Origin: Mobula hypostoma
Lineage: Eukaryota
Assembly: GCF_963921235.1 (NCBI RefSeq)
Contig: NC_086097.1
Location: 161,388,001 to 161,452,000 of the forward strand
Length of the DNA stretch: 64,000 nt
Direction of reading: 5' to 3'
Shown: piece after piece, positions 22,871 to 64,000 of the stretch
Layout: the number at the start of each line of letters is the position of its first letter
Position numbering within the stretch: the stretch's first letter is position 1
Notes under the pieces: model-generated
What the model was told of the DNA's origin: nothing
Databases searched by the model: none
What the model saw: only the letters and a program-made list of their open reading frames with translations
Made by a program: the position numbers and the translations under genes

Positions 22871-23339
22871 CTATTCTCGATACTGTGGTTTAAAGAAGGG
22901 GGGAGGGGGGAAGGAGGGTATATAAACACTTAAAACTCCATTGTTTAGATGGCTAGCAGTTTAATGCTAAGGGGGGGGGGAAGAAATGAGGTCTAAGGTA
23001 AAGACGGTAAACCGACGACGCAGTTCCAAGTTCTTTTTGACATTGTGAGGTGTGTCAATAAGGAAAGGAATAGGAAAGAGGTTGGTGAGGAAATAGAGGA
23101 GGAAGAAACTATGTGAGAGAGCTGGGCTGGAAGAGTCTAAGCAAGGACCTCCCAACCTGAGATCCACGGACCGTTCGGTTAATAGTAGGGATTCATGGCA
23201 TTAAAAAAAAAGTTGGGAACACCTGATAACATCGAGGGTAGGGAAAGGTGAACACGCCTGCGTCCCACCAAGGCTCCGAGGCTGGCGCTCGTCACCGGAA
23301 GTTGTCGTTAACGGCTGATTCTTCTCTTTAAAAATCCTC

Positions 23340-23513
23340 CCCCAGCGCTGCCAGAGCCAGTAAACGGAGGGTGCGCCGTTAAGCTCGGTACTGAGCGCGG
23401 CCACCACAGCAACCCACTGTTCAGCGAGCTGAGCCGGCCCGGCACGGCACAGCAACGGACGGACGACCGTCGGAGGCCACCCCGCTGCTTTACCTGTCCG
23501 TCCGCGTGAAGAG
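23340..23513 (+). other. slc45a4: Putative slc45a4 first (5'UTR) exon; start approximate
   Basis: GC-rich and AUG-free. Ends in the donor-like GAG|GTGGGA (GT 23514-23515). Alternative donors at 23529|30 and 23532|33 cannot be excluded. Confidence 0.55.
23455..23513 (+). CDS. Putative non-AUG uORF, part 1: (M)DGRPSEATPLLYLSVRVKR
   Basis: ACG at 23455 with G at -3 and G at +4. The frame is open across the predicted splice to 56123. Confidence 0.45.
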
Positions 23514-23625: not shown

Positions 23626-24340
23626 GGGTTAGATCAGAGAGCGGCATGGGGGGGTTAGATCAGAGAGCGATATTGAATCAGAGAGCGATATTGAGGGGGG
23701 TTTAGATCAGAGAGCGATATTGAGGGGGGTTTAGATCAGAGAACGATATTGAGGGGGTTAGATCAGAGAGCGGTATTGAGGGGGGGTTAGATCAGAGAGC
23801 GGTATTGAGGGGGGGTTAGATCAGAGAGCGATATTGAGGGGGGTTTAGATCAGAGAGCGATATTGAGGGGGGGTTTAGATCAGAGAGCGATATTGAGGGG
23901 GTTAGATCAGAGAGCGGTATTGAGGGGGGGTTAGATCAGAGAGTGGCATGGGGGGGTTAGATCAGAGAGCGATATTGAGGGGGGTTTAGATCAGAGAGCG
24001 ATATTGAGGGGGGTTTAGATCAGAGAGCGGTATTGAGGGGGGGTTAGATCAGAGAGCGGTATTGAGGGGGGGTTAGATCAGAGAGTGGCATGGGGGGGTT
24101 AGATCAGAGAGCGATATTGAGGGGGGTTTAGATCAGAGAGCGGCATGGGGGGGTTAGATCAGAGAGCGATATTGAGGGGGGTTTAGATCAGAGAGCAGTA
24201 TTGGGGGGTTTAGATCAGAGAGCGGTATTGAGGGGGGGTTTAGATCAGAGAGCGGCGTTGAGGAGGGGTTAGATCAGAGAGCGGCGTTGAGGGGGGGATT
24301 AGATTAGAGAGCAGCGTTCTGGGGGTTTTAGATCAGAGCA
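23626..24340 (+). repeat. G-rich minisatellite A, unit of about 29-30 bp GGGGGGTTAGATCAGAGAGCGATATTGA, more than 20 copies
   Basis: Direct tandem repeats with variable G-run length. Confidence 0.95.
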
Positions 24341-24399
24341 GTGTTGGGGTGAAGGTTGGGGCAGAGCACGGCATGAGGGGAGGTTTAGGTCAGAGAGCG

Positions 24400-25122
24400 G
24401 CATTCTGAGGGGGTTTAGAGCGGGGTGTAGGGTCGTGGGCGGGGGTTAGAGCTGGGCGGGGGTTAGAGCGGGGTGTGGGGTCGTGGGCGGGGGATAGAGC
24501 GGGGTGTGGGGTCGTGGGCAGGGTGTGGGGTCGTGGGCGGGGGTTAGAGCGTGGGCGGGGGTTGGAGCAGGGTGTGGTATCGTGGGCGGGCGTTAGAGCG
24601 GGTTGTGGTATCGTGGGCGGGCGTTAGAGCGGGGTGTGGGGGTCGTGGGCCAGGGTTAGAGCAGGGTGTTGGTTTGTGGGTGGGGGTTAGGGCAGGGTTT
24701 GGGGTCACGGGGGTGTTAGAGCGGGGTGTGGGGTCGAGGGCGGGGGTTAGAGCGGGGTGTGGTATCGTGGGCGGGGGTTAGAGCAGGGTGTGGGGTCGTG
24801 GGCGGGGGTTAGAGCAGGGTGTAGGGTCGTGGGCGGGTGTTAGGGCAGGGTGTGGTATCGTGGGCGGGTGTTAGGGCAGGGTTTGGGGTCACGGGGGGGT
24901 TAGAGCAAGGTGTGGGGTCGTGGGTGGGGGTTAGGGCAGGGTGTGGGGTCGTGGGCGGGCGTTAGAGTGGGGTGTGGGGTCGTGGGTGGGGGTTAGAGCA
25001 GGGTGTGGGGTCGTGGGCGGGGGGTAGAGCGGGGTGTGGGGTCGTGGGCGGGGGTTAGAGTGGGGTGTGGGGTCATGGGCAGGGGTTATAGCAGGGTGTG
25101 GGGTCACGGGGGGGTTAGAGCA
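24400..25122 (+). repeat. G-rich minisatellite B, unit of about 29 bp GGGGTTAGAGCGGGGTGTGGGGTCGTGGGC
   Basis: Direct tandem repeats; shares the GGGGTTAGA core with array A. Confidence 0.93.
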
Positions 25123-25992
25123 GAGTGCGGAATCAGGGAAGGAGAGCAATCATGGTAGAGAATAAGAATGTCCAGTGGGGGTGGGGCATTGTGGGTACTG
25201 TTTCAGGGTGGTGGGGGCTTACGGGGGACTGGATCAGGGGGTGTTGAGGGGGCTAGAGCAGCGTGGGGGGATGTTGGGGGAATTGAGCCAGGGTACAGGG
25301 TATATGGGTTGAGGGGAACTGGAGCAGGGTGGGTGGGGGTTGCGTGGCAAGTGGGGTTTGGGGGGGAGTGGTGGGGGTCTGGAGCAGGGTGGGGGTGTTG
25401 AAGGGGACTAGCACAGTAGGGAGGGAGGTTTGAGAGGGGATTTGAGCTCAGTAGGGAGTAGAGCAGAGCAGAGCAGAAGAGTGAAGTTTGGGGATAGCTG
25501 GAAAAGAAACAGATTTGCTATGGGAGGCTGTCGGAGAAGCGGTGCACTTCAGATGGTGTATGTGAATTGGGGTGGATGTGTTAAGTAGAGGGCGGCTATA
25601 GGAGAGTGGGTTGTGGAGATGAGTGGGATGGGATGTAGGAGGATGGAAGCTGTTGTGAGAGAAGGGGAGTCGTAAGGCTGGAGGGTCAAGTTTTGGGGCA
25701 GGGCGGGCCAAAGGATGAAGTCAGTAGGGGGGAATGAGACCTAAGGGAGTTGGCAGCTGGGGCTCTAAAGCTGGCAGATGGAGTGGAATAGGTGGCGGAG
25801 ATGTTGCAACAGAAGGTGAAGGAGAGAAGAGGAACGAAGGATGGATGCAGATTTGCTGGGCAGGGTATAGAAGTCTGCTGCAAAAATGCGACAGTGTACC
25901 AGGATAGTGTGTGATGGGTACATCAGCTGGATGGGGGTGGGGGCAGTGAAAGGTTGATGGCTTATCATGAAGCGAGCTGCAGACTTTTTCAG

Positions 25993-26067
25993 GGTGACGC
26001 AAGCTGATGTCCTCAGGAGGGCGGCGGTGCTGTTACCCAGCTGAAACTAGCTTCACATCAGCTTCTA
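25993..26067 (+). other. Candidate alternative 5'UTR exon of slc45a4
   Basis: Acceptor CTTTTTCAG| (weak) and donor CTA|GTAAGG. 75 nt, locally CpG-retaining, contains GTG CTG TTA CCC AGC TGA. Confidence 0.3.
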
Positions 26068-28274
26068 GTAAGGGTAGCCAGGGCTGCAGTGTGGTGGGAG
26101 CGTCTAATGCAGATTTTTTAAAAACAGAAACATTGCTCAAATGCCTAATTCTGAAGTATATTAAATGTTAGTGATGCTCTAATTTGTCCTTCTCCTACTG
26201 GAGCTTATAGTTCAAATATTCCTAAACTGCTTATTTATTCAGTGTTCTCTTTTGGTGATCTGATGAATCTGTCTATTCAGAGTTCTCAACTGAAGCATAA
26301 CCATATCCAGTGTTTAACAGCTACATGTTTTTAATTGTTAGTATTCTGTTTATTTGGTGTTTGATTTTGATCCCAGTTTGGTTGTATATTATGCTCGTAA
26401 ATTCTATGCGTTTCAGCTTATTTTATACAAAGACTTAAATTATTTGTCCAGGGATTTGAATCCCTTTATTACTGGGTTAGTTTGAGAGAAGTGGTGTAAA
26501 GATGAAACTTCACAATCTTTTTTTGTCTCCAAAAGTGAAACCTATAAGGCACATTGATAATGCATTCCATTTAAAAAAAAACAGGGAAAATTACTTGGAA
26601 AATCCAGCCCCTTTTAAATGCTTAGGGTGTGTTTTAGAATGCTTCGAGCGTTTCTATTGGTAAGCTTTGCATTATTCTATTTGTCACATAGTTAGGATTA
26701 GATTAGCCATTAAGGTTAAGACATGCTTGCATAAAATCACATTTACAGTTGCATAATTGTTTACTATAGGAATCTGTTTCTAAGTCTTAAATCTGCTGGT
26801 TTAAGGTGTTGTTAGCCATGTGAGGTTTTGCAATCTGGACTGAAGTGAGAATGCTAAGTAAACAAGGATGGTCTAGTCTTTTCATGATTTTTCTGAAATT
26901 CCTAATATCAGGTCTGGGTAATTTTTTTGGGGGTGGCTGTTTTATGGAAAGATATTCGTGAGCCTTGTTTGTTAAAATGCCTTTTTAAAAAGAAACACAG
27001 TTGTAGGTTTGCTTTATGTTTTTTTTAACTATGATGCTATATATATTTTTCACCTTGGCTTCTCCATAGAATCTGTTATCTAACCATACTAATTAAGGTA
27101 ATCTTTTTTTTAAAAAGCACTATAAATTTCCTTGTCAAAACATAGCCTGTCTTTTAAGGGTATTTTTTGGGAACCAAAGTACATTAATAACTATTTGAAC
27201 TTCATAAATGTGCAAGCAATTTTTATTGGTTATGTCTGGAGCTTTCTCCTGAAGAATTCTGGATGATATTGTGGATGTGAGGTACTGAATAAATATTTAA
27301 TGTTCTCTAAAAAGTTGAAATGTCTTCCAAATATTAATATAAGGTTTTCTTTGCCCTATGTTTGAGATGAATCGTAACAATTTTATCATAGAACAGTACT
27401 TCCAATATTTGTCTGCAAATAGTTGCGTTGGCACTAGATTTTTGACTTAAAAACTAGCTGATATATTACTAGTAAACTATTGCATTAAATTTATTGTGTG
27501 CCGAAAGTCCCACTTTTAATTAAAACTTGTGATATTTGTTTTGGTATGCATCCAACTATCTGTAATTTGATAGGGATGTATCCACTGCTTACATTTTGCA
27601 GCCCCTGGAAAATTTACTGTAGTTGAAAGGTGAGCTGTTCAAATCAGCATACCTGTAATTGATAATTATAACTTGCAGCAGGATTAAGGTCTTGCCTGTA
27701 TGTATGAATATTTTGGGATCATTTCAGTAGAACTATAATTTACAATATGGTAGCCTTAGAAATTTTGAAAATGCAGTCACTGAACCTAGCAGTAATTTTA
27801 GAAATAATCCAGATATAATTTATATAGATGCCTTTTTACAGATACAGAACTGCAAAAGTCTTGGGCACATGTTTTATATATTTAAAAAAAATCTATAAAG
27901 TAAAAATGCTTTCAAAAGTGAAATGAAAATTTTCTAAATATCAAAAAATATATAAAGAGCACTAAACAGCAAAAACACCAAATCAATGTTTGGTATGACC
28001 ACCCTTTGCCTTTAAAACTGCATCTATTCTCTTTGGTACACTGTCATGCAGTTATGTAAGAAAACTGGCTAGTAGATTGTTCCAAGCATCCTGCCACAGT
28101 TCTTCTTTAGCTGTCTTGCTTGCTTCTGTATCTGCAGGTAGTCCCAGACAGCCTCAATGAGATTAGGGCTCTGGAAGCCATGCCTTAGAAACATAGAAAA
28201 TAGGTGCAGGAGTAGGCCATTCGGCCCTTCGAGCCTGCACCGCCATTTATTATGATCATGGCTGATCATCCAGC

Positions 28275-31200
28275 TCAGAACCCAGCCTTCCCTCCATACC
28301 CCCTGACCCCTGTAGCCACAAGGGCCATATCTAACTTCCTTTTAAACATAGCTAATGAACTGGCCTCAACAGTTTGCTGTGGCAGAGAATTCCACAGATT
28401 CACCACTCTCTGTGTGAAGAAGTTTTTCCTAACCTCGGTCCTAAAAGGCTTCCCCTCTATCCTCAAACTGTGACCCCTCGTTCTAGACCTCCCCAACATC
28501 GGGAACAATCTTCCCGCATCTAGCCTGTCCAATCCCTTTAGGATCTTATACGTTTCAATCAGATCCCCCCTCAATCTTCTAAATTCCAACGAGTACAAGC
28601 CCAGTTCATCCAGTCTTTCTTCATATGAAAGACCTGCCATCCCAGGAATCAATCTGGTGAACCTTCTTTGTACTCCCTCTATGGAAAAGATGTCTTTCCT
28701 CAGATTAGGGGACCAAAACTGCACACAATACTCCAGGTGTGGTCTCACCAAGGCCTTGTACAACTGCAGTAGTACCTCCCTGCTCCTGTACTCGAATCCT
28801 CTCGCTATAAATGCCAGCATACCGTTCGCCTTTTTCACCGCCTGCTGTACCTGCATGCCCACTTTCAATGACTGGTGTATAATGACACCCAGGTCTCGTT
28901 GCACCTCCCCTTTTCCTAATCGGCCACCATTCAGATAATAATCTGTTTTCCTATTTTTGCCACCAAAGTGGATAACTTCACATTTATCCACATTAAATTG
29001 CATCTGCCATGAGTTTGCCCACTCACCCAACCTATCCAAGTCACCCTGCATCCTCTTAGCATCCTCCTCACTGCTAACACTGCCACCCAGCTTTGTGTCA
29101 TCCGCAAACTTGGAGATGCTGCATTTAATTCCCTCATCCAAGTCATTAATATATATTGTAAACAACTGGGGTCCCAGCACTGAGCCTTGCGGTACCCCAC
29201 TAGTCACCGCCTGCCATTCTGAAAAGGTCCCGTTTATTCCCACTCTTTGCTTCCTGTCTGCTAACCAATTCTCCACCCACACCAATACCTTACCCCCAAT
29301 ACCGTGTGCTTTAAGTTTGCACACTAATCTCCTATGTGGGACCTTGTCAAAAGCCTTTTGAAAATCCAAATATACCACATCCACTGGTTCTCCCCTATCC
29401 ACTCTACTAGTTACATCCTCAAAAAATTCTACGAGATTCGTCAGACATGATTTTCCTTTCACAAATCAATGCTGACTTTGTCCGATCATTTCACCGCTTT
29501 CCAAATGTGCTGTTATCACATCCTTGATAACTGACTCCAGCAGTTTCCCCACCACCGACGTTAGGCTAACCGGCCTATAATTCCCCGGTTTCTCTCTCCC
29601 TCCTTTTTTTAAAAAGTGGGGTTACATTAGCCACCCTCCAATCCTCAGGAACTAGTCCAGAATCTAACGAGTTTTGAAAAATTATCACTAATGCATCCAC
29701 TATTTCTTGGGCCACTTCCTTAAGCACTCTGGGATGCAGACCGTCTGGCCCTGGGGATTTATCTGCCTTCAATCCCTTCAATTTACCTAACACCACTTCC
29801 CTACTAACATGTATTTCGCTCAGTTCCTCCATCTCACTGGACCCTCTGTCCCTTACTATTTCTGGAAGATTATTTATGTCCTCCTTAGTGAAGACAGAAC
29901 CAAAGTAATTATTCAATTGGTCTGCCATGTCCTTGCTCCCCATAATCAATTCACCTGTTTCTGTTTGCAGGGGACCTACATTTGTCTTTATCAGTCTTTT
30001 CCTTTTTACATATCTATAAAAGCTTTTACAGTCCGTTTTTATGTTCTCTGCCAGTTTTCTCTCATAATCTTTTTTCCCCTTCCTAATTAAGCCCTTTGTC
30101 CTCCTCTGCTGAACTCTGAATTTCTCCCAGTCCTCAGGTGAGCCACTTTCTCTGGCTAATTTGTATGCTACTTCTTTGGAATTGATACTATCCCTAATTT
30201 CTCTTGTCAGCCACGGGTGCACTACCTTCCTTGATTTATTCTTTTGCCAAACTGGGATGAACAATTGTTGTAGTTCATCCATGCAACCTTTAAATGCCTG
30301 CCATTGCATATCCACCGTCAATCCTTTAAGTGTCATTTGCCAGTCTATCTTAGCTAATTCATGTCTCATACCTTCAAAGTTACCCCTCTTTAAGTTCAGA
30401 ACCTTTGTTTCTGAATTAACTACGTCACTCTCCATGTCAATGAAGAATTCCACCATATTATGGTCACTCTTACCCAAGGGGCCTCTCACGACAAGATCGC
30501 TAATTAACCCTTCCTCATTGCTCAAAACCCAGTCCAGAATAGCCTGCTCTCTAGTCGGTTCCTCGACATGTTGGTTCAAAAAACCATCCCGCATACATTC
30601 CAAGAAATCCTCTTCCTCAGCACCTTTACCAATTTGGTTCACCCAGTCTACATGTAGATTGAAGTCACCCATTATAACTGCTGTTCCTTTATTGCACACA
30701 TTTCTAATTTCCTGTTTAATACCATCTCCGACCTCACTACTACTGTTAGGTGGCCTGTACACAACTCCCACCAGCGTCTTCTGCCCCTTAGTGTTACGCA
30801 GCTCTACCCATATCGATTCCACATCTTCCCGGCTTATGTCCTTCCTTTCTATTGCGTTAATCTCTTTTTTAACCAGCAACGCCACCCCACCTCCCCTTCC
30901 TTCATGTCTATCCCTCCTGAATATTGAATATCCCTGAACGTTGAGCTCCCATCCCTGGTCACCCTGGAGCCATGTCTCTGTGATCCCAACTATATCATAA
31001 TCATTAATAACAATCTGCACTTTCAATTCATCCACCTTATTACGAATGCTCCTTGCATTGACACATAAAGCCTTCAGGCGCTCTTTTACAACTCTCTTAG
31101 CCCTTTTTAATGCTTGCCCTGGATTTGTCGGCCTGCCACTTTTACTTTTCCCCTTTGTACTTTTTGCTTCTACGCTCACTTTACACCCCTCTGTCTCTCT

Positions 31201-54959: not shown

Positions 54960-55620
54960 GCCCCTACTTAGGAGTTTGCAAAGATTTGGCATGACATCCA
55001 AAACTTTAGTAAACTTCTATAGATGTACGGCAGAGAGTATATTGACTGGCTGCATCAACGCTGGTATGGAAACAGCAATGCTCTTGAACAGAAAATCCCT
55101 TTTTAAAGAAAAAAGTAGTGGACACGATCCAGTTCATCATGGGTAAAGCCATCCCCACCATTGACATATAACATTGTCACAGAAAAGCAGTATCCATCAT
55201 CAGGGACCCCACCACCCAGCTCGTGCTTTTTTCTTGCTGCTACCATCAGGAAGATGGTACAGGAGCCTCAGGATTCACACCGCCAGGTTTAAGAACAGTT
55301 ATTACACCATCAGCCATCAGACTCCTGAACCAGAGGGGATAACTTCACTTGCCTCATCATAGGTCTATTCTCACAACCTGTAGGGTCACTTTCAAAGACT
55401 CTTCATGTCATGTTCGCTATTTATTTATTGTTATTGTTTCCTTTTTCTTTTTGTATTTGTACAGAGTGTTGTCTTTTGCTCACTGGTTGTCAATGCTGTT
55501 GATGTGGTCTTTCATTAATTCTACTATGTTTATTGGATTTCTTGACTATGCCTACAAGATGATGAATCTCAGGGTTGTATTTGGTAACGTATATACTGAT
55601 GATAAGTTTACTTTGAACTC
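54960..55620 (+). mobile_element. Rex1/Babar-like LINE 3' fragment
   Basis: LRSLQRFGMTSKTLVNFYRCTAESILTGCI; LLPSGRWYRSLRIHTARFKNSY. Confidence 0.78.
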
Positions 55621-56122
55621 CTTATTACTGAATAAGACTATTGAATGAACATGAGATGATCTCTTGACCCCATTCTACTCATGATCTTGTACTTTTGTCT
55701 ACCTGCACTTTTTCTGTAGATGCTGCTCTTTATTCTGCATTGTTATTGTTTTACATTACACTACCTCAGTGCATTGTGTAAATGATAGAATCTGTATGAA
55801 CCATATGCAAGACAAACTTTTCACTGTAACTCCGATTCCAATAACACTTTGCACACATTTGCTGGAGTACAAATTAGGCAATGAAAATGTCCAGTCTTTG
55901 GTCAAGTCTGCTGCTTTATATTTTACTTTGAAGTTGTAATCAAATTTTCACTTGCTGACATTGAGTTATAATTTGTGAAACTTATGCTAACTTAATATTT
56001 GAGATCTAGTACTTCCAGTTTTTCTAATGCGCCATTAAAGAATTTTTAGATCATGCGCAACATTGCCAAGTAACTTCTAGCTACACTAAATGGCTCTAAG
56101 ATTTATCTCTTTCTTGTTTCAG

Positions 56123-56204
56123 AACGGTCGCTCGATGGGGAGCAACAGAGAACTACCTCTTTGCATCACTGCCTCATCTCTACACTGCAGAAACTCCTCT
56201 ATAA
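56123..56204 (+). CDS. Putative non-AUG uORF, part 2: TVARWGATENYLFASLPHLYTAETPL*
   Basis: Continues the exon-1 frame (AG|A = Arg) to TAA at 56202-56204. Confidence 0.45.
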
Positions 56205-56416
56205 TGAAACTAGTATTAACTGAATGGCAATTAATATGGATTTTTAATAGACAGTAAACAAGCCATAATCCAAAGCTTCTACCAAAAAGTCTTCATCTGG
56301 TGTATGGTTTTAAGAATATTTTTGAAGGAAATGGTGGAAGAGAAGTATTAAACCTACAACTGAAGCACACGGAAACGGCAGGAAGCAAGTTTTTTCAAAA
56401 AGCAAATTTATTTTTT
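56123..56416 (+). other. slc45a4: 5'UTR portion of the slc45a4 first coding exon
   Basis: Strong acceptor TCTCTTTCTTGTTTCAG| (AG 56121-56122) upstream of the start ATG. Confidence 0.7.
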
Positions 56417-56648
56417 ATGGCAGCAATGGCACCACAGAATGATGATACAGGACCTATACAAGCACAAGAATTGCTCACAAAGTTGAAAAAGAAGGAGGTC
56501 GAGGAGAATGGTGATGAAACAGTTAGTGAGGGATCCATTGACCATATTCCTGTCAAATTGTGGGTCATGCATGGTGCAGTGATGTTTGGCAGGGAGTTCT
56601 GTTATGCAATGGAAACTGCCTTGGTAACACCAGTATTGTTGCAGATAG
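56417..56648 (+). CDS. slc45a4: Solute carrier family 45 member 4, first coding exon (MFS-type; reported polyamine transporter, earlier described as a sugar/H+ symporter)
   Basis: MAAMAPQN...[45 protein letters not shown] matches the vertebrate SLC45A4 N-terminus as I recall it. Donor G|GTGAGT at 56649 (phase 1). Later exons are outside the window. Confidence 0.95.
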
Positions 56649-57498
56649 GTGAGTGCTAAAAATCTAGTCAAGATTACAATATTTTTGAAATGGCTCTTAT
56701 TTCACACAACAACTACACAAAATATTACGATGAGTCTGACATAATCTCATTGAGTTTATGCATGTGCTTGCTATCCTGTACAAACGTACAATTGGATGAC
56801 TGATTTAATAGTGCATTAAGTACTTGCAACCTCACTGCGGCAAATAAACACCTGGGGCGGAAAAGAATGTAACCATGTTTGAACTTGGTGATAATGCCAA
56901 GGTTTTAGATGGCAGGTGAAAATGCTATCTATTCTATTCTACTGTTAGAAAGTTTGCAGTATTATACTTTTTTCTATCATTGTATCTAAACATTGGATTT
57001 GCACTTCAGAAAATCTGATGCTTTTTAATCAGCTTTAAACACTGAATTTACCAATTTGAGAAATTCTGCATGTTCTTGCAGCTTGTGAATTGTATTAATA
57101 ATGTACATTATTCCAAAGTATTTTCATATAATTGGTCGGCAGATATGCAGAAGGTTGATCTAAGTGTATTAAACCTATTTTTTTCATTTAAGGACTTGCT
57201 ATTTGAGAGTTGGTACTGCTGGGCATGCTTCTGATATTTTTATTGCTAACCAACACTTTGAATAGATTTAAATAGAGTGATGGCTGCATTTTCCATAGAA
57301 ACCTATTAAATCTGATCTTTCTATCTACGGAAGAAATCTAATGGAATATTTGACATGCTTGATTTTTGACAACATTTGGTAAGCTAATATTTCAGATATT
57401 TATTGAGTATGAGAAATGCAGGACTACACAAGGAGAGCAAAGAATATAAGATAGTATTAGCAGATAAGGTAAAAGAGAATTCCAAGAGATTCTAAGTA

Positions 57499-58730
57499 CA
57501 CTCAAACCCCACATAACACTACCCCACATAGCACGGATTCGTTACAACGCTGTTATTCAATTCTTCATTGAAATTTTTTTAAATGAAAAAAAAATTATTC
57601 TAAACAACATTTAAAACTTCTCAAGAACCGCCACCATTACGGTAATTATTCAACCAGCCAATGAGAGTGCTTTACATACACTGTGAGCCACTCATAGCCA
57701 ATCACATACAACCCCTGAGTGTGTAAACGCTCTTGCTCCCTTGCCAATTTCTTCCATTTCTTTTCAACCATAATGGCCAACAACTTCCAGTGAGGGTAGT
57801 ACATCTAAGGTGGTTTGGAAAAGCATTAGCATGGGTGTGAAACTGCAAGTGATACGACAGTTGGAAGCTGGTGAGCATCAGATTGATGATAGCGCCTCTT
57901 TGAAATTGGCTACATCAATAATCAGATCAAATATAAAAAATGCAGACAAGATAAAAGCTCCTGCAACAACTACCTCAAAGTTATCATCAACAGAGGTGAA
58001 TCGTTCAAGGAGTCATTTGCTTGAGAAAAGGAAAATAGATTAAATGTATGGGTGGATGACCAAACACAATGAAACATGTCCCTAAGCCAGCTGATAATAA
58101 TGGAAAAGGCAAGATAAGTCTTCAATCATATTCAAGAAAAAGAAGATACATCAGTAACATTTGTAACCAGCATTCATAACTATCGGGTTTGATAGATTTA
58201 AACAGCGCAATAACCTCTAAAGCAGAGGTATCTCTAGTGAAGAGGAAACCCCAGCAAGAAACCTCAAGTCAATATTCCTCAGCACTAGCATCACCATGAT
58301 CACACAACTCATGGACCAGTTCATCAATAATAACCCTGATTGGGAATGAAGCAATAAGGATAGAGGTATCCGCAACATGATTTCCTACTACCAACAATTC
58401 GTTCATGAGAGGAAACTTAAGAAAGGCAGTCAAATCTCAACGCCTGCTTGAAGAAGAAGCCGAAGTTAGAGGAGGACCCACAGCCTAGTCCCTCTAGATG
58501 TAACCATGACAAGTTTCCTTCCATTGCTGCTGTGATGTGTTGCTGCTCCACTGATGTACAGGTTAGGCCTATTTGCATGTTTGTTACTCCATGAATTACT
58601 GTGTATACATAAATCTCAGGTTTGTTTTTTGATATCAGGCACACATGTCCATTTATGTAATGCTATAATGACCCCACATAGCGCTCCACCTCCGAGGAAT
58701 GCATCCTCAGCGTTAAGTAGGGTCTGAGTG
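57499..58730 (+). mobile_element. Tigger/pogo-family DNA transposon, internally deleted
   Basis: TIRs CACTCAAACCCCACATAAC and GTTAAGTAGGGTCTGAGTG, with TA on the left. ORF 57810..58043 resembles the CENP-B/TIGD N-terminal HTH (KSISMGVKLQVIRQLEAGE..KNADKIK). No DDE domain seen. Confidence 0.8.
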
Positions 58731-59613
58731 TGTATCAAGAGCCAAGAGGGTAACCAGGCACGTTATTGGATCCTTTAAGGATCAATGTGATCATCCATTT
58801 GTGGAGCCATGGAAGATGTGCATGGTCTTGTATGAATACTTCTTGCCAGTGTTTACCATGGAGAAAATTGTGGAAACAAGCAGTTTCAGGGAAGAGAATA
58901 GTGATATCCTGAAACTTGTATACATTACAAAAGTGGTGCTGGCAGTCTTAGAGCACAAGTTAAATCCTGGTTAAATCCCAGGAGCTTGACCAAGTATATC
59001 TTAGCACGTTGTGGGAAGTTGGGCAAAAAATTGCAGGGACGTGGCAGAAAGTCTTTTCATTTTTCTTGGCCATGCGTGAATACCAGAAGATTGAAAGGTG
59101 GTTAATATTGTTCCTCTCTTTAAAGGTCTGCAAGGATAAACCAAGGAACTAAAGCCAATGACGCTAATGCCAATGGTGGGAAAGTTACTGGAAGGGTTTC
59201 TGAGAATCTGGATCTATTTGCATTTGGAAATGAAGGTCTAAATGGGGATAGTCAACGTGGCTTTGTGTGTGGGCAATCACGTCTCACGAATTTGAGTTAT
59301 TTGAAAAGGTGATCAAAAGGATTGACAGGAGCCAATGGTAGATGTTATCTACGTGACTTCTCCAAAGTGTTTGACAAGGTCCCACATAGTAGGCTGATCC
59401 AGAAGGATGAGCTAACCAAATAGATTTAAAAAAAATAGTTTAGTGATAGGGGAAAGAGGATGATAATTGAGGGGTGTTTCTTTTCCTGATTGGTGGCCTG
59501 TGTCCATTGGTAGGTAGATAATTTTGCAAATGATACCAAAATTAGTGGTATAGTATGCAGTAAGGGTTATGTAATAACTTAAATGAACTGGGGAAGTGGA
59601 CCAAGAATTGACA

Positions 59614-59842
59614 AGCAACAGACATCAAAGTTGCTGGTGAACGCAGCAGGGCTGGCAGCATCTCTAGGAAGAGGTACAGTCGACATTTCGGGCCAAGACC
59701 CTTTGTCAGGACGAACGAAGGGTCTCGGCCCGAAACGTCGACTGTACCTCTTCCTGGAGATGCTGCCTGGCCTGCTGCGTTCACCAGCAACTTTGATGTG
59801 TGTTTCTTGAATTTCCAGCATCTGCAGAATTCCTCGTGTTTA
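59614..59842. mobile_element. Fold-back insertion of PLE terminal repeats
   Basis: Inverted arms meet at two partial hammerhead motifs; TSD CAAGAATTGACA (59602-59613) and CAAGAAATGACA (59843-59854). Confidence 0.87.
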
Positions 59843-60496
59843 CAAGAAATGACAGATGGAATTTAACTTGGATAAGTGTGACGTGTTGCATTTGAGATGT
59901 TAAACTAGGGCAGAACTTGAACAGTAAATAGCAAGCCCTGGGGTGTGTCCTAGAGCAGAGACGCCTAGGAGTACAGGTACCCGGTTTCCTGAAAATGGTG
60001 ACACAAGGTGATGGTGTTTATCACACTGGCCTTCATCAATTAGGGTACTGTCTGCAGGAGCTGAGATGTCAGGTTACAGTTGTCCAAGATGGTGAGAGTG
60101 TACTTGAGTATTGTGTACTGGTCTTGTTGCCGTACTATTTCGTTAAGCTGGAAAGGGCGTGGAAAAGATTCATATGGATGTTAGAGAGGAAGGATAGGCT
60201 GGGGCTGACCTTGTAGATGTGTATAAAATCATGAGGGGCATAAATGGTGTGGATGATCAGTATTTTTCCCAGGATTAAGGAGTCTAAAACTAAAGGACAT
60301 AGGTTTAAGCCGAGAAGGGAAAGATTTAAAGGGGATCTGAGGGATAGGCTTTTCCTCACAGTGGAGTGGATTTTTTCACACACATGGAATGAGCTGCCAG
60401 AAGTGGTAGAGGTGGGTACAATTATAATGTTTTGAAGATGTAATAGACATGATCATGAAGAGGAAATGCTTGAATGGATATTGTCCAATATACATT

Positions 60497-63400
60497 ATTG
60501 AAGTACTGGTTGCGTCCTTTTTCCCGGTATCTTTTGTATGTTCTGTTTCCTCTCCGGGTTTGTGGGTCGCGCCTATCGTCAATCCTCCTTGTTGTGGGTT
60601 GACTTTAGGATTTATGGAGTCTATTATTAATTTTGTCTCCTGGAATACTAACGGTCTTAATCATCCTATTAAAAGGAAAAAAGTTTTTAAAGTGTTCCGG
60701 AGACTTAAAGCACAAATTTTATTTTTACAAGAGACCCATGTACGGAGGGGGGACAGACTACGTTTTTTCAAATTCTGGAAGGGACAACAATTTCATTCGA
60801 ACTCCAATGCTAAGATTCGAGGCGTCTCTATTTTTATAGATTCCTCAGTTACTTTTATACAACAGGATATTATTTCTGATCCGAATGGTAGATTTTTATT
60901 GGTTAGTGGTTTACTATTTAATAAAAAAGTAGTTTTGGTTAATGTTTATGCTCCTAATATGGATTGTCCAGAATTTTATAAATCATTGTTTGATCAGTTT
61001 CCGAATTTGAACGAGTTTTCATTGATCTGGGGCGGAGATCTTAATACTTGTTTGTCTCCAGCTTTGGACCGTTCGGCTCCTTTACGGACTTTACCTAATA
61101 AATCTGCAAATTTGATTAATTTTTTCCTTTCTGATTCTGGGTCGATGGACATTTGGCGTTTTCTGCATCCTCAGGAAAAAGATTTTTCCTTCTTTTCACA
61201 TGTTCATCATTCCTATTCAAGAATTGATTATTTTTTCATTGATTCTCGTCTTATTCCTTCAGTGATTAAATGTGATTATGATTCTATAACCATTTCGGAT
61301 CATGCTCCACTTAAGCTTTCTATTAAAATTATGGCCAGTATACCAAATAATAGACAATGGCGTTTTAATTCGCTGTTGCTTCAGGACTCGGACTTTGTTA
61401 ATTTTATGAATGAACAGATTGAGCTTTTTTTTTACAATTAACCATACAGAAGATATTTCGGTTAACACTCTTTGGGACACTTTTAAAGCCTATATTCGGG
61501 GTCAGATTATTTCGTATTCTGCTGCTTTGAGGAAGAAACAGAAGCAGGAGGAGATGGCAATTGTGGACAAGATTAAAGAAATTGATAAGAAATATGTTAT
61601 GGCTCCTTCTGAGGAGTTATACAAACAAAGAACTGAACTTCAAATGGAACACAGTTTACTACTCTCGTCCTCGATTGTAAACCAATTAAAGAAAACAAGA
61701 AGTGACTTTTATGTTCACAGTGACAAAATTGGCAAGCTGTTGGCTAATCAATTGAAATCTAATTATGTTAAATCTCAAATCAATCAGATTTATAACCAAA
61801 ATGATCGATTGATACTGGATCATGTGGGGATCAATCAAACCTTTTGTGATTTTTATTCTTCTTTATATCAATCAGAGTCTCCTCGAGATTCTAAATATAT
61901 GAATGATTTTTTAGATAAGTTAGACTTCCCTCAGATTTCACAGGATATGTCTTCTTTATTAGATACTTCCATTACAATGGATGAGATTAAGAATGTTATT
62001 TTTTCTATGAATCTGGGGAAAGCTCCTGGCCCGGATGGGTTTACCGTTGAATTTTATAAATGTTTTGCTTCTTTATTGATTCCTTGGCTCTGTAGGGTTT
62101 TTGAGGCTTCTTTGAAACTTGGTAAACTTCCTGAATCTTTTAATAGAGCATCTATTTCTCTAATACTAAAGAAGGATAAAGACCCTGCTCAATGTGCATC
62201 TTATAGACCAATATCTTTATTAAATGTTGATTCTAAAGTTTTTTCTAAGTTATTAGCAAATAGACTAGAAAAAGTACTTCCTTCTATTATTTCGGAAGAC
62301 CAAACGGGTTTTATTAAAGGTCGTTACTCTTTTTATAATATTCGTACATTGTTAAATATCGTTTATACTCCCTCACAAAATGTTCCTGAGTGTGTTATTT
62401 CTTTAGATGCCGAGAAAGCTTTTGATAGAGTAGAATGGCCTTATTTATTTAAGGTGCTTGAAATGTTTAATTTTAGCTTGAAATTTATATCCTGGATTAA
62501 ACTGTTATATCATTCCCCTGTAGCCTCGGTTCGTACTAACTCTTTAAACTCACCTTTTTTTCCTCTCTTTCGAGGTACTCGACAAGGCTGTCCTCTTAGT
62601 CCCCTATTATTTGATATTGCATTAGAACCTCTTGCAATTGCTATTCGAGAATCTTCAAATATTACTGGGATAACTCAGGGGATTAAAGTCCCATAAATTA
62701 TCACTCTATGCTGATGATTTACTTTTATATATTTCTAATCCTGAGAAATCCATTCCTGCTGTTTTAGAGTTATTAGCACAATTTGGTCTTTTCTCAGGTT
62801 ATAAATTAAATCTTAGTAAGAGTGAACTTTTTCCGATTAATAAACATCTTCCCTTATATTATAAATTTCCATTTAAATTGATTAATAATTATTTTTCATA
62901 TCTTGGGATTAAAATTACTTGTAAATACAAAGATTTATTTAAGATTAACTTTTTACCATTAATAGACCATATTACTCAACTTTCATCTAAATGGTTTCCC
63001 TTATATTTAACTTTGATTGGTCGTATTAATGCAGTTAAGATGTTTTTTTTGCCAAAATTTTTATGTGTTTCAGGCATTACCAATTTTCGTTCCAAAATCT
63101 TTCTTTGATAAAGTTGACTCTAAAATTTCTTCATTTATTTGGCAGAATAAGAATCCGAGACTGGGTAAAATACATTTACAGAAAGCTAAGAGAGATGGAG
63201 GTTTAGCATTACCTAACTTTAGATTCTATTATTGGGCTATTAATATTCGACATATGAAATTTTGGTTACTTGACCAGGATATACTATCTATTCCTAAATG
63301 GGTAGCATTGGAATTACAATCTGTTCAGGGTTATACACTTGGCTCTATTTTAGGCTCCTCTCTCCCTTTTGATTCGAAACGCCTTAAGCAGGTCTCTAAC

Positions 63401-64000
63401 CCGATAGTTAAATATGCTTTGCGCATTTGGTTTCAATTCAGAAAATTTTTTGATCTTAATCAATTCGGGTTAGCGATTCCTATTTTAGGTAACATATTTT
63501 TTCCTCCCTCTTTTACGGATCGCGCTTTTCAAACTTGGAAGACTAAGGGTATTTTACGGTTTTTGGATTTATTTTTAGATGGTTCCCTTATGTCTTTTGA
63601 ACAATTATCTAATAAATATAACTTATCAAGAATACATTTTTTTAGATATTTACAAGTTAGAAATTTCCTAAGTACTATACTTTCTTCCTTTCCAATGCTT
63701 CCTCCTATATATATTTTAGATTCGATAATTAACCTTAATCCATGTCAGAAAGGTGCATCGGCTATGATTTATAATATTATTATGAAACTTAGGAAAGCTC
63801 CATTTGATAAGATTAGGGTAGATTGGGAACAGGAATTGGGGCTTACCATTTCTGTGGATGATTGGGGGCAGATTTTACAATTAGTTAATACTTCCTCTAT
63901 TTGTGCTAAACATTCCCTAATTCAATTTAAAGTGGTTCATAGAGCACATATGTCCAAAGATAAGTTAGCGCGTTTTTACTCGCATATTAATCCTTTCTGT
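60497..64000 (+). mobile_element. L1-clade LINE, ORF1 missing, ORF2 from ATG 60614 running off the window, three frameshifts
   Basis: Endonuclease SWNTNGLN, FLQETH, GGDLN, SRIDYF, SDHAP. RT KAPGPDGF, YRPISLLNVDSK, SLDAEKAFDRVEW, GTRQGCPLSP, SLYADD. Confidence 0.95.

Follow-up and report, generated by a model that had tools for sequence, protein, structure and literature searches.

Results

The SLC45A4 locus and its main leader

The window, i.e. the whole stretch of 64,000 nucleotides of Mobula hypostoma DNA analysed here, harbours exons 1 and 2 of SLC45A4, separated by an intron 1 of 32,609 nt which contains a short exon-like segment. The features of the locus are the following:

23297..23513, plus strand: exon 1, CpG-rich, donor GAG/GTGGGA; probable extent, 5' end approximate
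23455..23457, plus strand: ACG, putative near-cognate start of a spliced uORF in the main leader, read from the sequence only
25967..25969, plus strand: in-frame ATG with A at -3, located 5' of the candidate acceptor; opens a 25-codon frame to LLPS-stop if unspliced
25985..25992, plus strand: candidate acceptor with a short T5 tract and CAG, weak; AG at 25991-25992, kept in both relatives
25993..26067, plus strand: candidate exon (likely pseudo-exon), 75 nt, single-copy
26000..26002, plus strand: CAA in the window and TAA in both relatives, there a stop two codons into the segment
26027..26044, plus strand: GTG-LLPS-stop (VLLPS-stop) with TGA at 26042-26044 and G at -3, read from the sequence
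26068..26073, plus strand: candidate donor GTAAGG, near consensus, CTA preceding the GT at 26068
56123..56648, plus strand: exon 2, comprising the remainder of the leader and the first 77 SLC45A4 codons (ATG 56417 or 56426), placed by phmmer and contigs

The assignment of the locus to SLC45A4, already made in a preliminary description of this DNA, is borne out by the reading frame of exon 2 which, when opened at ATG 56417, aligns with the human protein of known structure (phmmer, PDB 9giu/9ghz, E 8e-25), and further SLC45A4 exons were located downstream in the same genome. A Pfam search with the 77-aa exon 2 frame assigned no family. Elsewhere in the genome, the first coding exon of an SLC45 paralogue (L004, G000:C5:17408275-17408358, minus strand) shows 71% identity over 28 residues. 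The available excerpts of PMC12507699 and PMC12634670 describe SLC45A4 as a polyamine/putrescine transporter and tie it to pain and to GABA synthesis; those of the latter paper also mention a conserved circular RNA from SLC45A4.

The exon 1 region (23250-23499) has a GC content of 0.64 and a CpG observed/expected ratio of 1.0. Directly 3' of the exon 1 donor, at 23659-25134, lie two G-/CpG-rich minisatellites, consisting of a 29-nt unit repeated 26 times and a 31-nt unit repeated 22 times. When exon 1 is joined by script to exon 2 at 56123, the ACG uORF comprises 46 codons and ends in Pro-Leu-stop (PL-stop) at 56202-56204, the TAA of which overlaps an ATG at 56204. The leader part of exon 2 contains six AUGs ahead of the main start. 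Protein searches of other vertebrates yielded no candidate for the exon 1 frame of the ACG uORF and, for its exon 2 frame, three matches all of which are unrelated repeat proteins. Comparison of this uORF with Atlas gave no usable match, and in the own genome no paralogous uORF reached a meaningful E-value.

A short frame ending in LLPS-stop within intron 1

The segment is situated at the transition from a G-rich stretch to the AT-rich part of intron 1. Re-reading of the sequence reproduced every letter and coordinate that the preliminary description had given for it (the AG, the GTG, the TGA, the G at -3 and the CTA/GTAAGG boundary). Likewise, joining the segment by script to the end of exon 1 at 23513 places it, as had been claimed, in frame with the ACG at 23455 and ends this frame in LLPS-stop; the spliced frame amounts to 36 codons and is open through the TGA at 26044 in the M. 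hypostoma genome. The DNA pattern is confirmed, while the status of the segment as an exon goes no further than that of a candidate.

Each of two queries returned one match in the own genome, in a search that ignores very common words, indicating a single-copy segment. With one match for either query and no copy elsewhere in the window, the segment being part of a transposon was rejected for now. The exact 18-nt pattern occurs at two further sites of the genome as compared to an expectation of 0.66 (assuming 42% GC). These sites were rejected as homologues since they have only a 17-nt core in common with the segment and their flanks resemble each other instead. The flanks of the two sites are presumably Tc1-like.

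Splice signals and base composition

The candidate acceptor contains 11 pyrimidines among 18 positions and is preceded by another AG only 8 nt upstream. In comparison, the exon 2 acceptor shows 16/18 pyrimidines and an AG-free zone of 20 nt, and four downstream SLC45A4 acceptors, the sites of which were placed from the reading frames, show 12-15/18 pyrimidines and 18-36 nt free of AG. Hence, the acceptor had rightly been called weak: beside these five SLC45A4 acceptors, four of them placed in the manner described, it has both the fewest pyrimidines and the shortest stretch free of AG. The CpG observed/expected ratio ranges from 0.18 to 0.53 over 25250-25999 and is 0.27 at 26000, compared to 1.0 at exon 1; this low CpG density around the segment counts against a second promoter.

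Transcript evidence

A search with exon 2 retrieved 22 runs, all as contigs, none of which is recorded as RNA and 14 of which are RNA according to the guess of the tool. Contigs were compared over 55500-64000 for four of the RNA-guessed runs (X1-X4), all belonging to organism A and to one study and having a word share of 0.94-0.96. In all four runs the exon 2 contigs match 56121-56650 with zero differences and then continue upstream into 138-215 nt of other sequence; the contig of X1 through exon 2 has a length of 6045 nt. The sharp contig ends at both exon 2 splice sites fit spliced RNA.

Since the AG of 56121-56122 is already included in the match, the upstream partner exon must end in AG. 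The candidate segment ends in CTA and would let the match begin at 56123, so it is directly seen to be absent from these four contigs. The AG-ending partner is likely exon 1, which ends in GAG; if so, the implied 5' ends fall at about 23297-23374, within the CpG island. Contigs of X1 and X3 over 25900-26200 numbered zero in both runs, which does not prove absence of the segment. As assembled contigs lose rare isoforms, a minor isoform including the segment is compatible with these data. The preliminary description had named the lack of any transcript including the segment as an observation that would speak against its exon; the main contigs do skip it in 4/4 runs, yet a rare isoform is compatible with what they show.

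At the other end of exon 2, the contigs of X2-X4 extend into intron 2 (56621-57432) at about half the exon depth figure, an extension which is a retained intron or pre-mRNA. Further into intron 2, from 60428 to 64000 and beyond, long endonuclease-/RT-like frames of 337, 428, 144 and 457 codons are found, which we take to belong to an L1-type LINE; the RNA-guessed contigs provide deep coverage of this family. Two additional frames in the L012 region of intron 2 (G000:C1, about 161458250 and 161459714, window-relative 70250 and 71714) presumably resemble the PIF1-type helicase of a Helitron.

Comparison with two relatives

For comparison we used two runs, X17 (organism H) and X18 (organism D), which stem from two studies, hold 2.6-2.7 billion letters each and, by this size, appear to be genomic. 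In either of them one contig spans the orthologous stretch. Six sites of the segment set both relatives apart from the window, namely 26000 (C>T), 26023 (G>A), 26027 (G>A), 26038 (C>A), 26046 and 26063. Read in the frame of the motif, the difference at 26000-26002 is a stop, those at 26023 and 26038 are synonymous (Ala and Pro, respectively), and that at 26027 replaces GTG by ATG. Both relatives thereby possess an MLLPS-stop frame with an AUG and G at -3, flanked by the AG and the GTAAGG, both intact, and the Pro-Ser-stop ending is present in the DNA of all three genomes examined. Some in-frame start precedes LLPS-stop in each of the three, a local AUG in the relatives and GUG or read-through in the window. 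At 25996-26003, M. hypostoma reads TGACGCAA and the relatives read TGACGTAA, a change that also creates a donor-like GTAAG word at 25999; the letters at this site presumably resemble a CRE or a C/EBP-ATF site.

All 13 substitutions listed over 25932-26200 are common to both relatives, so that the two amount to one comparison and effectively to one lineage, at about 5% divergence. With three taxa compared, the substitutions are differences without a direction (ancestral versus derived). Among the indels listed, none falls inside the segment; a 1-nt insertion follows 25989 in X18, and both relatives carry insertions at 26075-26082. The frame from ATG 25967 is broken in both relatives by the stop at 26000, in X18 additionally by the 1-nt insertion.

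Conservation of the segment does not exceed that of the neighbouring intron, as far as the low power of one lineage permits: it carries 6 substitutions in 75 nt, compared to 7 in 194 nt of the shared flanks (Fisher p 0.20), a difference in the wrong direction for constraint. Half of its substitutions (3/6) fall within the 24 nt that make up the motif plus its start context. At the divergence of the relatives, LLPS-stop would survive unchanged by neutral chance with a probability of about 0.58. The sole change inside LLPS-stop is synonymous, as would be 11 of the 45 possible single changes. The ATG at 26027 constitutes the best evidence for the finding because G>A affects no more than 2 of the 72 non-CpG G sites, 26027 included. 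The joint difference of stop and AUG is suggestive of compensation; two independent transitions account for it equally well.

These data divide the proposals of the preliminary description. A switch by which splicing would exchange the PL-stop of the ACG uORF for PS-stop finds no support: the TAA at 26000-26002 of both relatives terminates the fused ACG frame before LLPS-stop is reached, so the switch is not conserved, and in 4/4 RNA-guessed runs the exon 2 contigs are not joined to the candidate. The short (M)LLPS-stop frame read from the GUG gains support at the level of sequence, as position 26027 opens an ATG in the relatives and LLPS-stop is retained there with one synonymous change. Loss of the motif in related rays and sharks had been named as a further point against the idea; it is kept in 2/2 close relatives, which represent one lineage.

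Chance expectation for the motif

As a null model we used block-wise dinucleotide shuffles of the 32,609-nt intron 1, pseudo-exons being defined crudely by a Y5-YAG acceptor, a length of 50-250 nt and a GTRAG donor. LLPS-stop occurs anywhere in the shuffled intron in 11% of 400 shuffles. Inside a pseudo-exon, PS-stop is found in 531/1500 shuffles, a near-cognate start followed within 20 codons by PS-stop in 273/1500, RTG followed within 5 codons by PS-stop in 86/1500 and ATG followed within 5 codons by PS-stop in 58/1500, compared to 9/1500 for LLPS-stop and 0/1500 for RTG-LLPS-stop. Thus, a start followed by PS-stop, the feature needed by the yeast mechanism, arises by chance in 4-18% of shuffles and is only moderately rare. 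The exact RTG-LLPS-stop pattern is rarer than chance, but this pattern was chosen post hoc.

By the same crude criteria the real intron 1 contains 11 pseudo-exons, two of which include PS-stop. The second of these pseudo-exons, at 29889-30137, illustrates how frequent such an ending is. From the codon rates of intron 1, about 380 ATG-LLPS-stop words are expected genome-wide. A scan of metagenomes for the pattern gave zero matches.

Discussion

The yeast precedent invoked in the preliminary description agrees with the excerpts of PMC10855120 and PMC11550727. According to these, the uORF of Saccharomyces cerevisiae HOL1 encodes MLLLPS-stop (Vindu et al. 2021, as described there), and high polyamines slow eIF5A-dependent termination at its Pro-Ser-stop (PMC10855120); PS-stop is given as the conserved motif of this uORF in the review PMC11550727, as excerpted. 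The segment shares with the HOL1 uORF a short Leu-containing frame that ends in Pro-Ser-stop upstream of the coding region of a polyamine transporter and, in the relatives only, an AUG start, whereas in M. hypostoma it starts with GUG. The likeness lies in the last four codons and in the type of gene, and the motif has one Leu fewer than its yeast counterpart. Moreover, the HOL1 uORF is part of an ordinary mRNA leader, is conserved and has demonstrated repressive activity, while the segment is a DNA-level candidate that lies in an intron and is skipped by the contigs. HOL1 and SLC45A4 are not known to be orthologues, and the likeness would therefore reflect either convergence or chance.

A model for regulated inclusion is provided by the polyamine-regulated poison exon of SAT1 (SSAT), as far as it is described in the excerpts of PMC7337517: as the segment would be, it is small and optional, contains stop codons and belongs to a gene of the polyamine pathway. 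The SAT1 exon, though, is part of the coding region, has been observed in transcripts and leads to NMD, in contrast to a candidate leader exon which the contigs skip. Excerpts of PMC10855120 further name the non-AUG uCC of AZIN1/ODC and the MAGDIS uORF of AMD1 as polyamine-sensing uORFs. Unlike the segment, these are conserved and constitutive parts of their leaders with other stalling motifs; their nearer analogue at the present locus is the putative ACG uORF in the main leader of slc45a4. Within the accessible literature, neither a uORF nor a leader exon of SLC45A4 turned out to be described, and a prior report is possible. Of two papers that pair SLC45A4 with a uORF, PMC5758873 says that SLC45A4 shifts to a uORF; in the main text of the study it cites, SLC35A4 appears 16 times and SLC45A4 not once. 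This explicit mention of an SLC45A4 uORF is traceable to SLC35A4.

The segment also invites comparison with the pseudo-exons of long vertebrate introns. It resembles them in having AG and GT at exon-like distance, a weak acceptor, a conservation not above that of its flanks and in being skipped; it differs from typical cases in holding an unusually exact start-LLPS-stop pattern. We consider it probable that the segment is such an intronic pseudo-exon and that it resembles the yeast HOL1 uORF in LLPS-stop by coincidence, where the weights we attach to this and the other readings are judgements from the counts and not computed posteriors. The spliceosome would pass the weak acceptor with its short pyrimidine tract and competing AGs and excise the whole 32.6-kb intron; the LLPS-stop motif would never reach mRNA or ribosome, and the segment would drift at the rate of the intron. 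Neutrality, the identity of the upstream exon and the lack of a minor isoform are parts of this explanation which we infer. It is favoured by the missing AUG at 26027 in M. hypostoma. Against it count the relatives' ATG exactly at the proposed start, the synonymous nature of the one change inside LLPS-stop, the retention of both splice signals, the position of the listed insertions just beyond the segment, an in-frame start of some kind in each of the three genomes and the result of 0/1500 shuffles for RTG-LLPS-stop; a polyamine transporter gene also makes such an element plausible.

Alternatively, the segment might be a cassette exon, rare or tissue-specific, by which the slc45a4 leader would gain a short uORF of the HOL1 type, an explanation we judge unlikely. 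In the relatives, the ACG uORF would then stop two codons into the exon and be followed by AUG-MLLPS-stop, and slowed eIF5A-dependent termination at Pro-Ser-stop under high polyamines would repress the transporter; in M. hypostoma the same ending might be reached via GUG, or by read-through from the ACG after loss of the stop. The ATG at 26027 with its G at -3, the synonymous Pro codon and the intact AG and GTAAGG in 2/2 relatives argue for it, as do the lack of any listed indel inside the segment in either relative, the exact RTG-LLPS-stop pattern in none of 1500 shuffles, the seemingly compensatory joint difference of stop and AUG, and the precedents of the HOL1 uORF and of the SAT1 exon as excerpted. 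It is weakened by main contigs that skip the segment in 4/4 runs, by conservation not above the flanks in two relatives amounting to one comparison, and by the occurrence of the looser pattern required by the mechanism in 58-273 of 1500 shuffles; in addition, exon 2 holds six AUGs, so that an extra far-upstream uORF need not dominate.

The weak acceptor would find an explanation if an alternative first exon, originating in the G-rich DNA at 25135-25990 and using the donor GTAAGG only, ended with the segment. Its uORF would start at ATG 25967 in M. hypostoma (25 codons with the LLPS-stop end) and at ATG 26027 in the relatives. While the near-consensus donor kept in the relatives and the in-frame ATG 25967 with A at -3 would suit such an exon, the CpG ratio stays low over 25250-25999 as compared to exon 1, neither relative keeps the 25967 frame intact and the partner of exon 2 in the contigs ends in AG; we regard this origin as very unlikely. 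Least probable of all appears a conserved sensor toggle in which inclusion would extend the ACG uORF through the segment and replace PL-stop by PS-stop. The frame from ACG 23455 to the TGA at 26044 is indeed open in M. hypostoma, but the stop at 26000 in 2/2 relatives refutes the toggle there as a conserved mechanism, the exon 2 contigs include no joined form, and PL-stop as a sensor ending is itself putative.

The boldest proposal that the data may accommodate is that an optional SLC45A4 leader exon with an AUG-MLLPS-stop uORF converged on the HOL1 sensor, that splicing sets the polyamine shut-off of uptake, and that M. hypostoma keeps the PS-stop ending via read-through or GUG after paired loss of stop and AUG; we hold this to be doubtful. 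If the segment is a look-alike, as our preferred explanation as a pseudo-exon has it, it matters only as a caution. If it is truly a minor exon, it would represent a HOL1-type Pro-Ser-stop sensor on a vertebrate polyamine transporter, convergent with that of yeast and gated by splicing, and would permit a direct test of animal-cell feedback on polyamine uptake.
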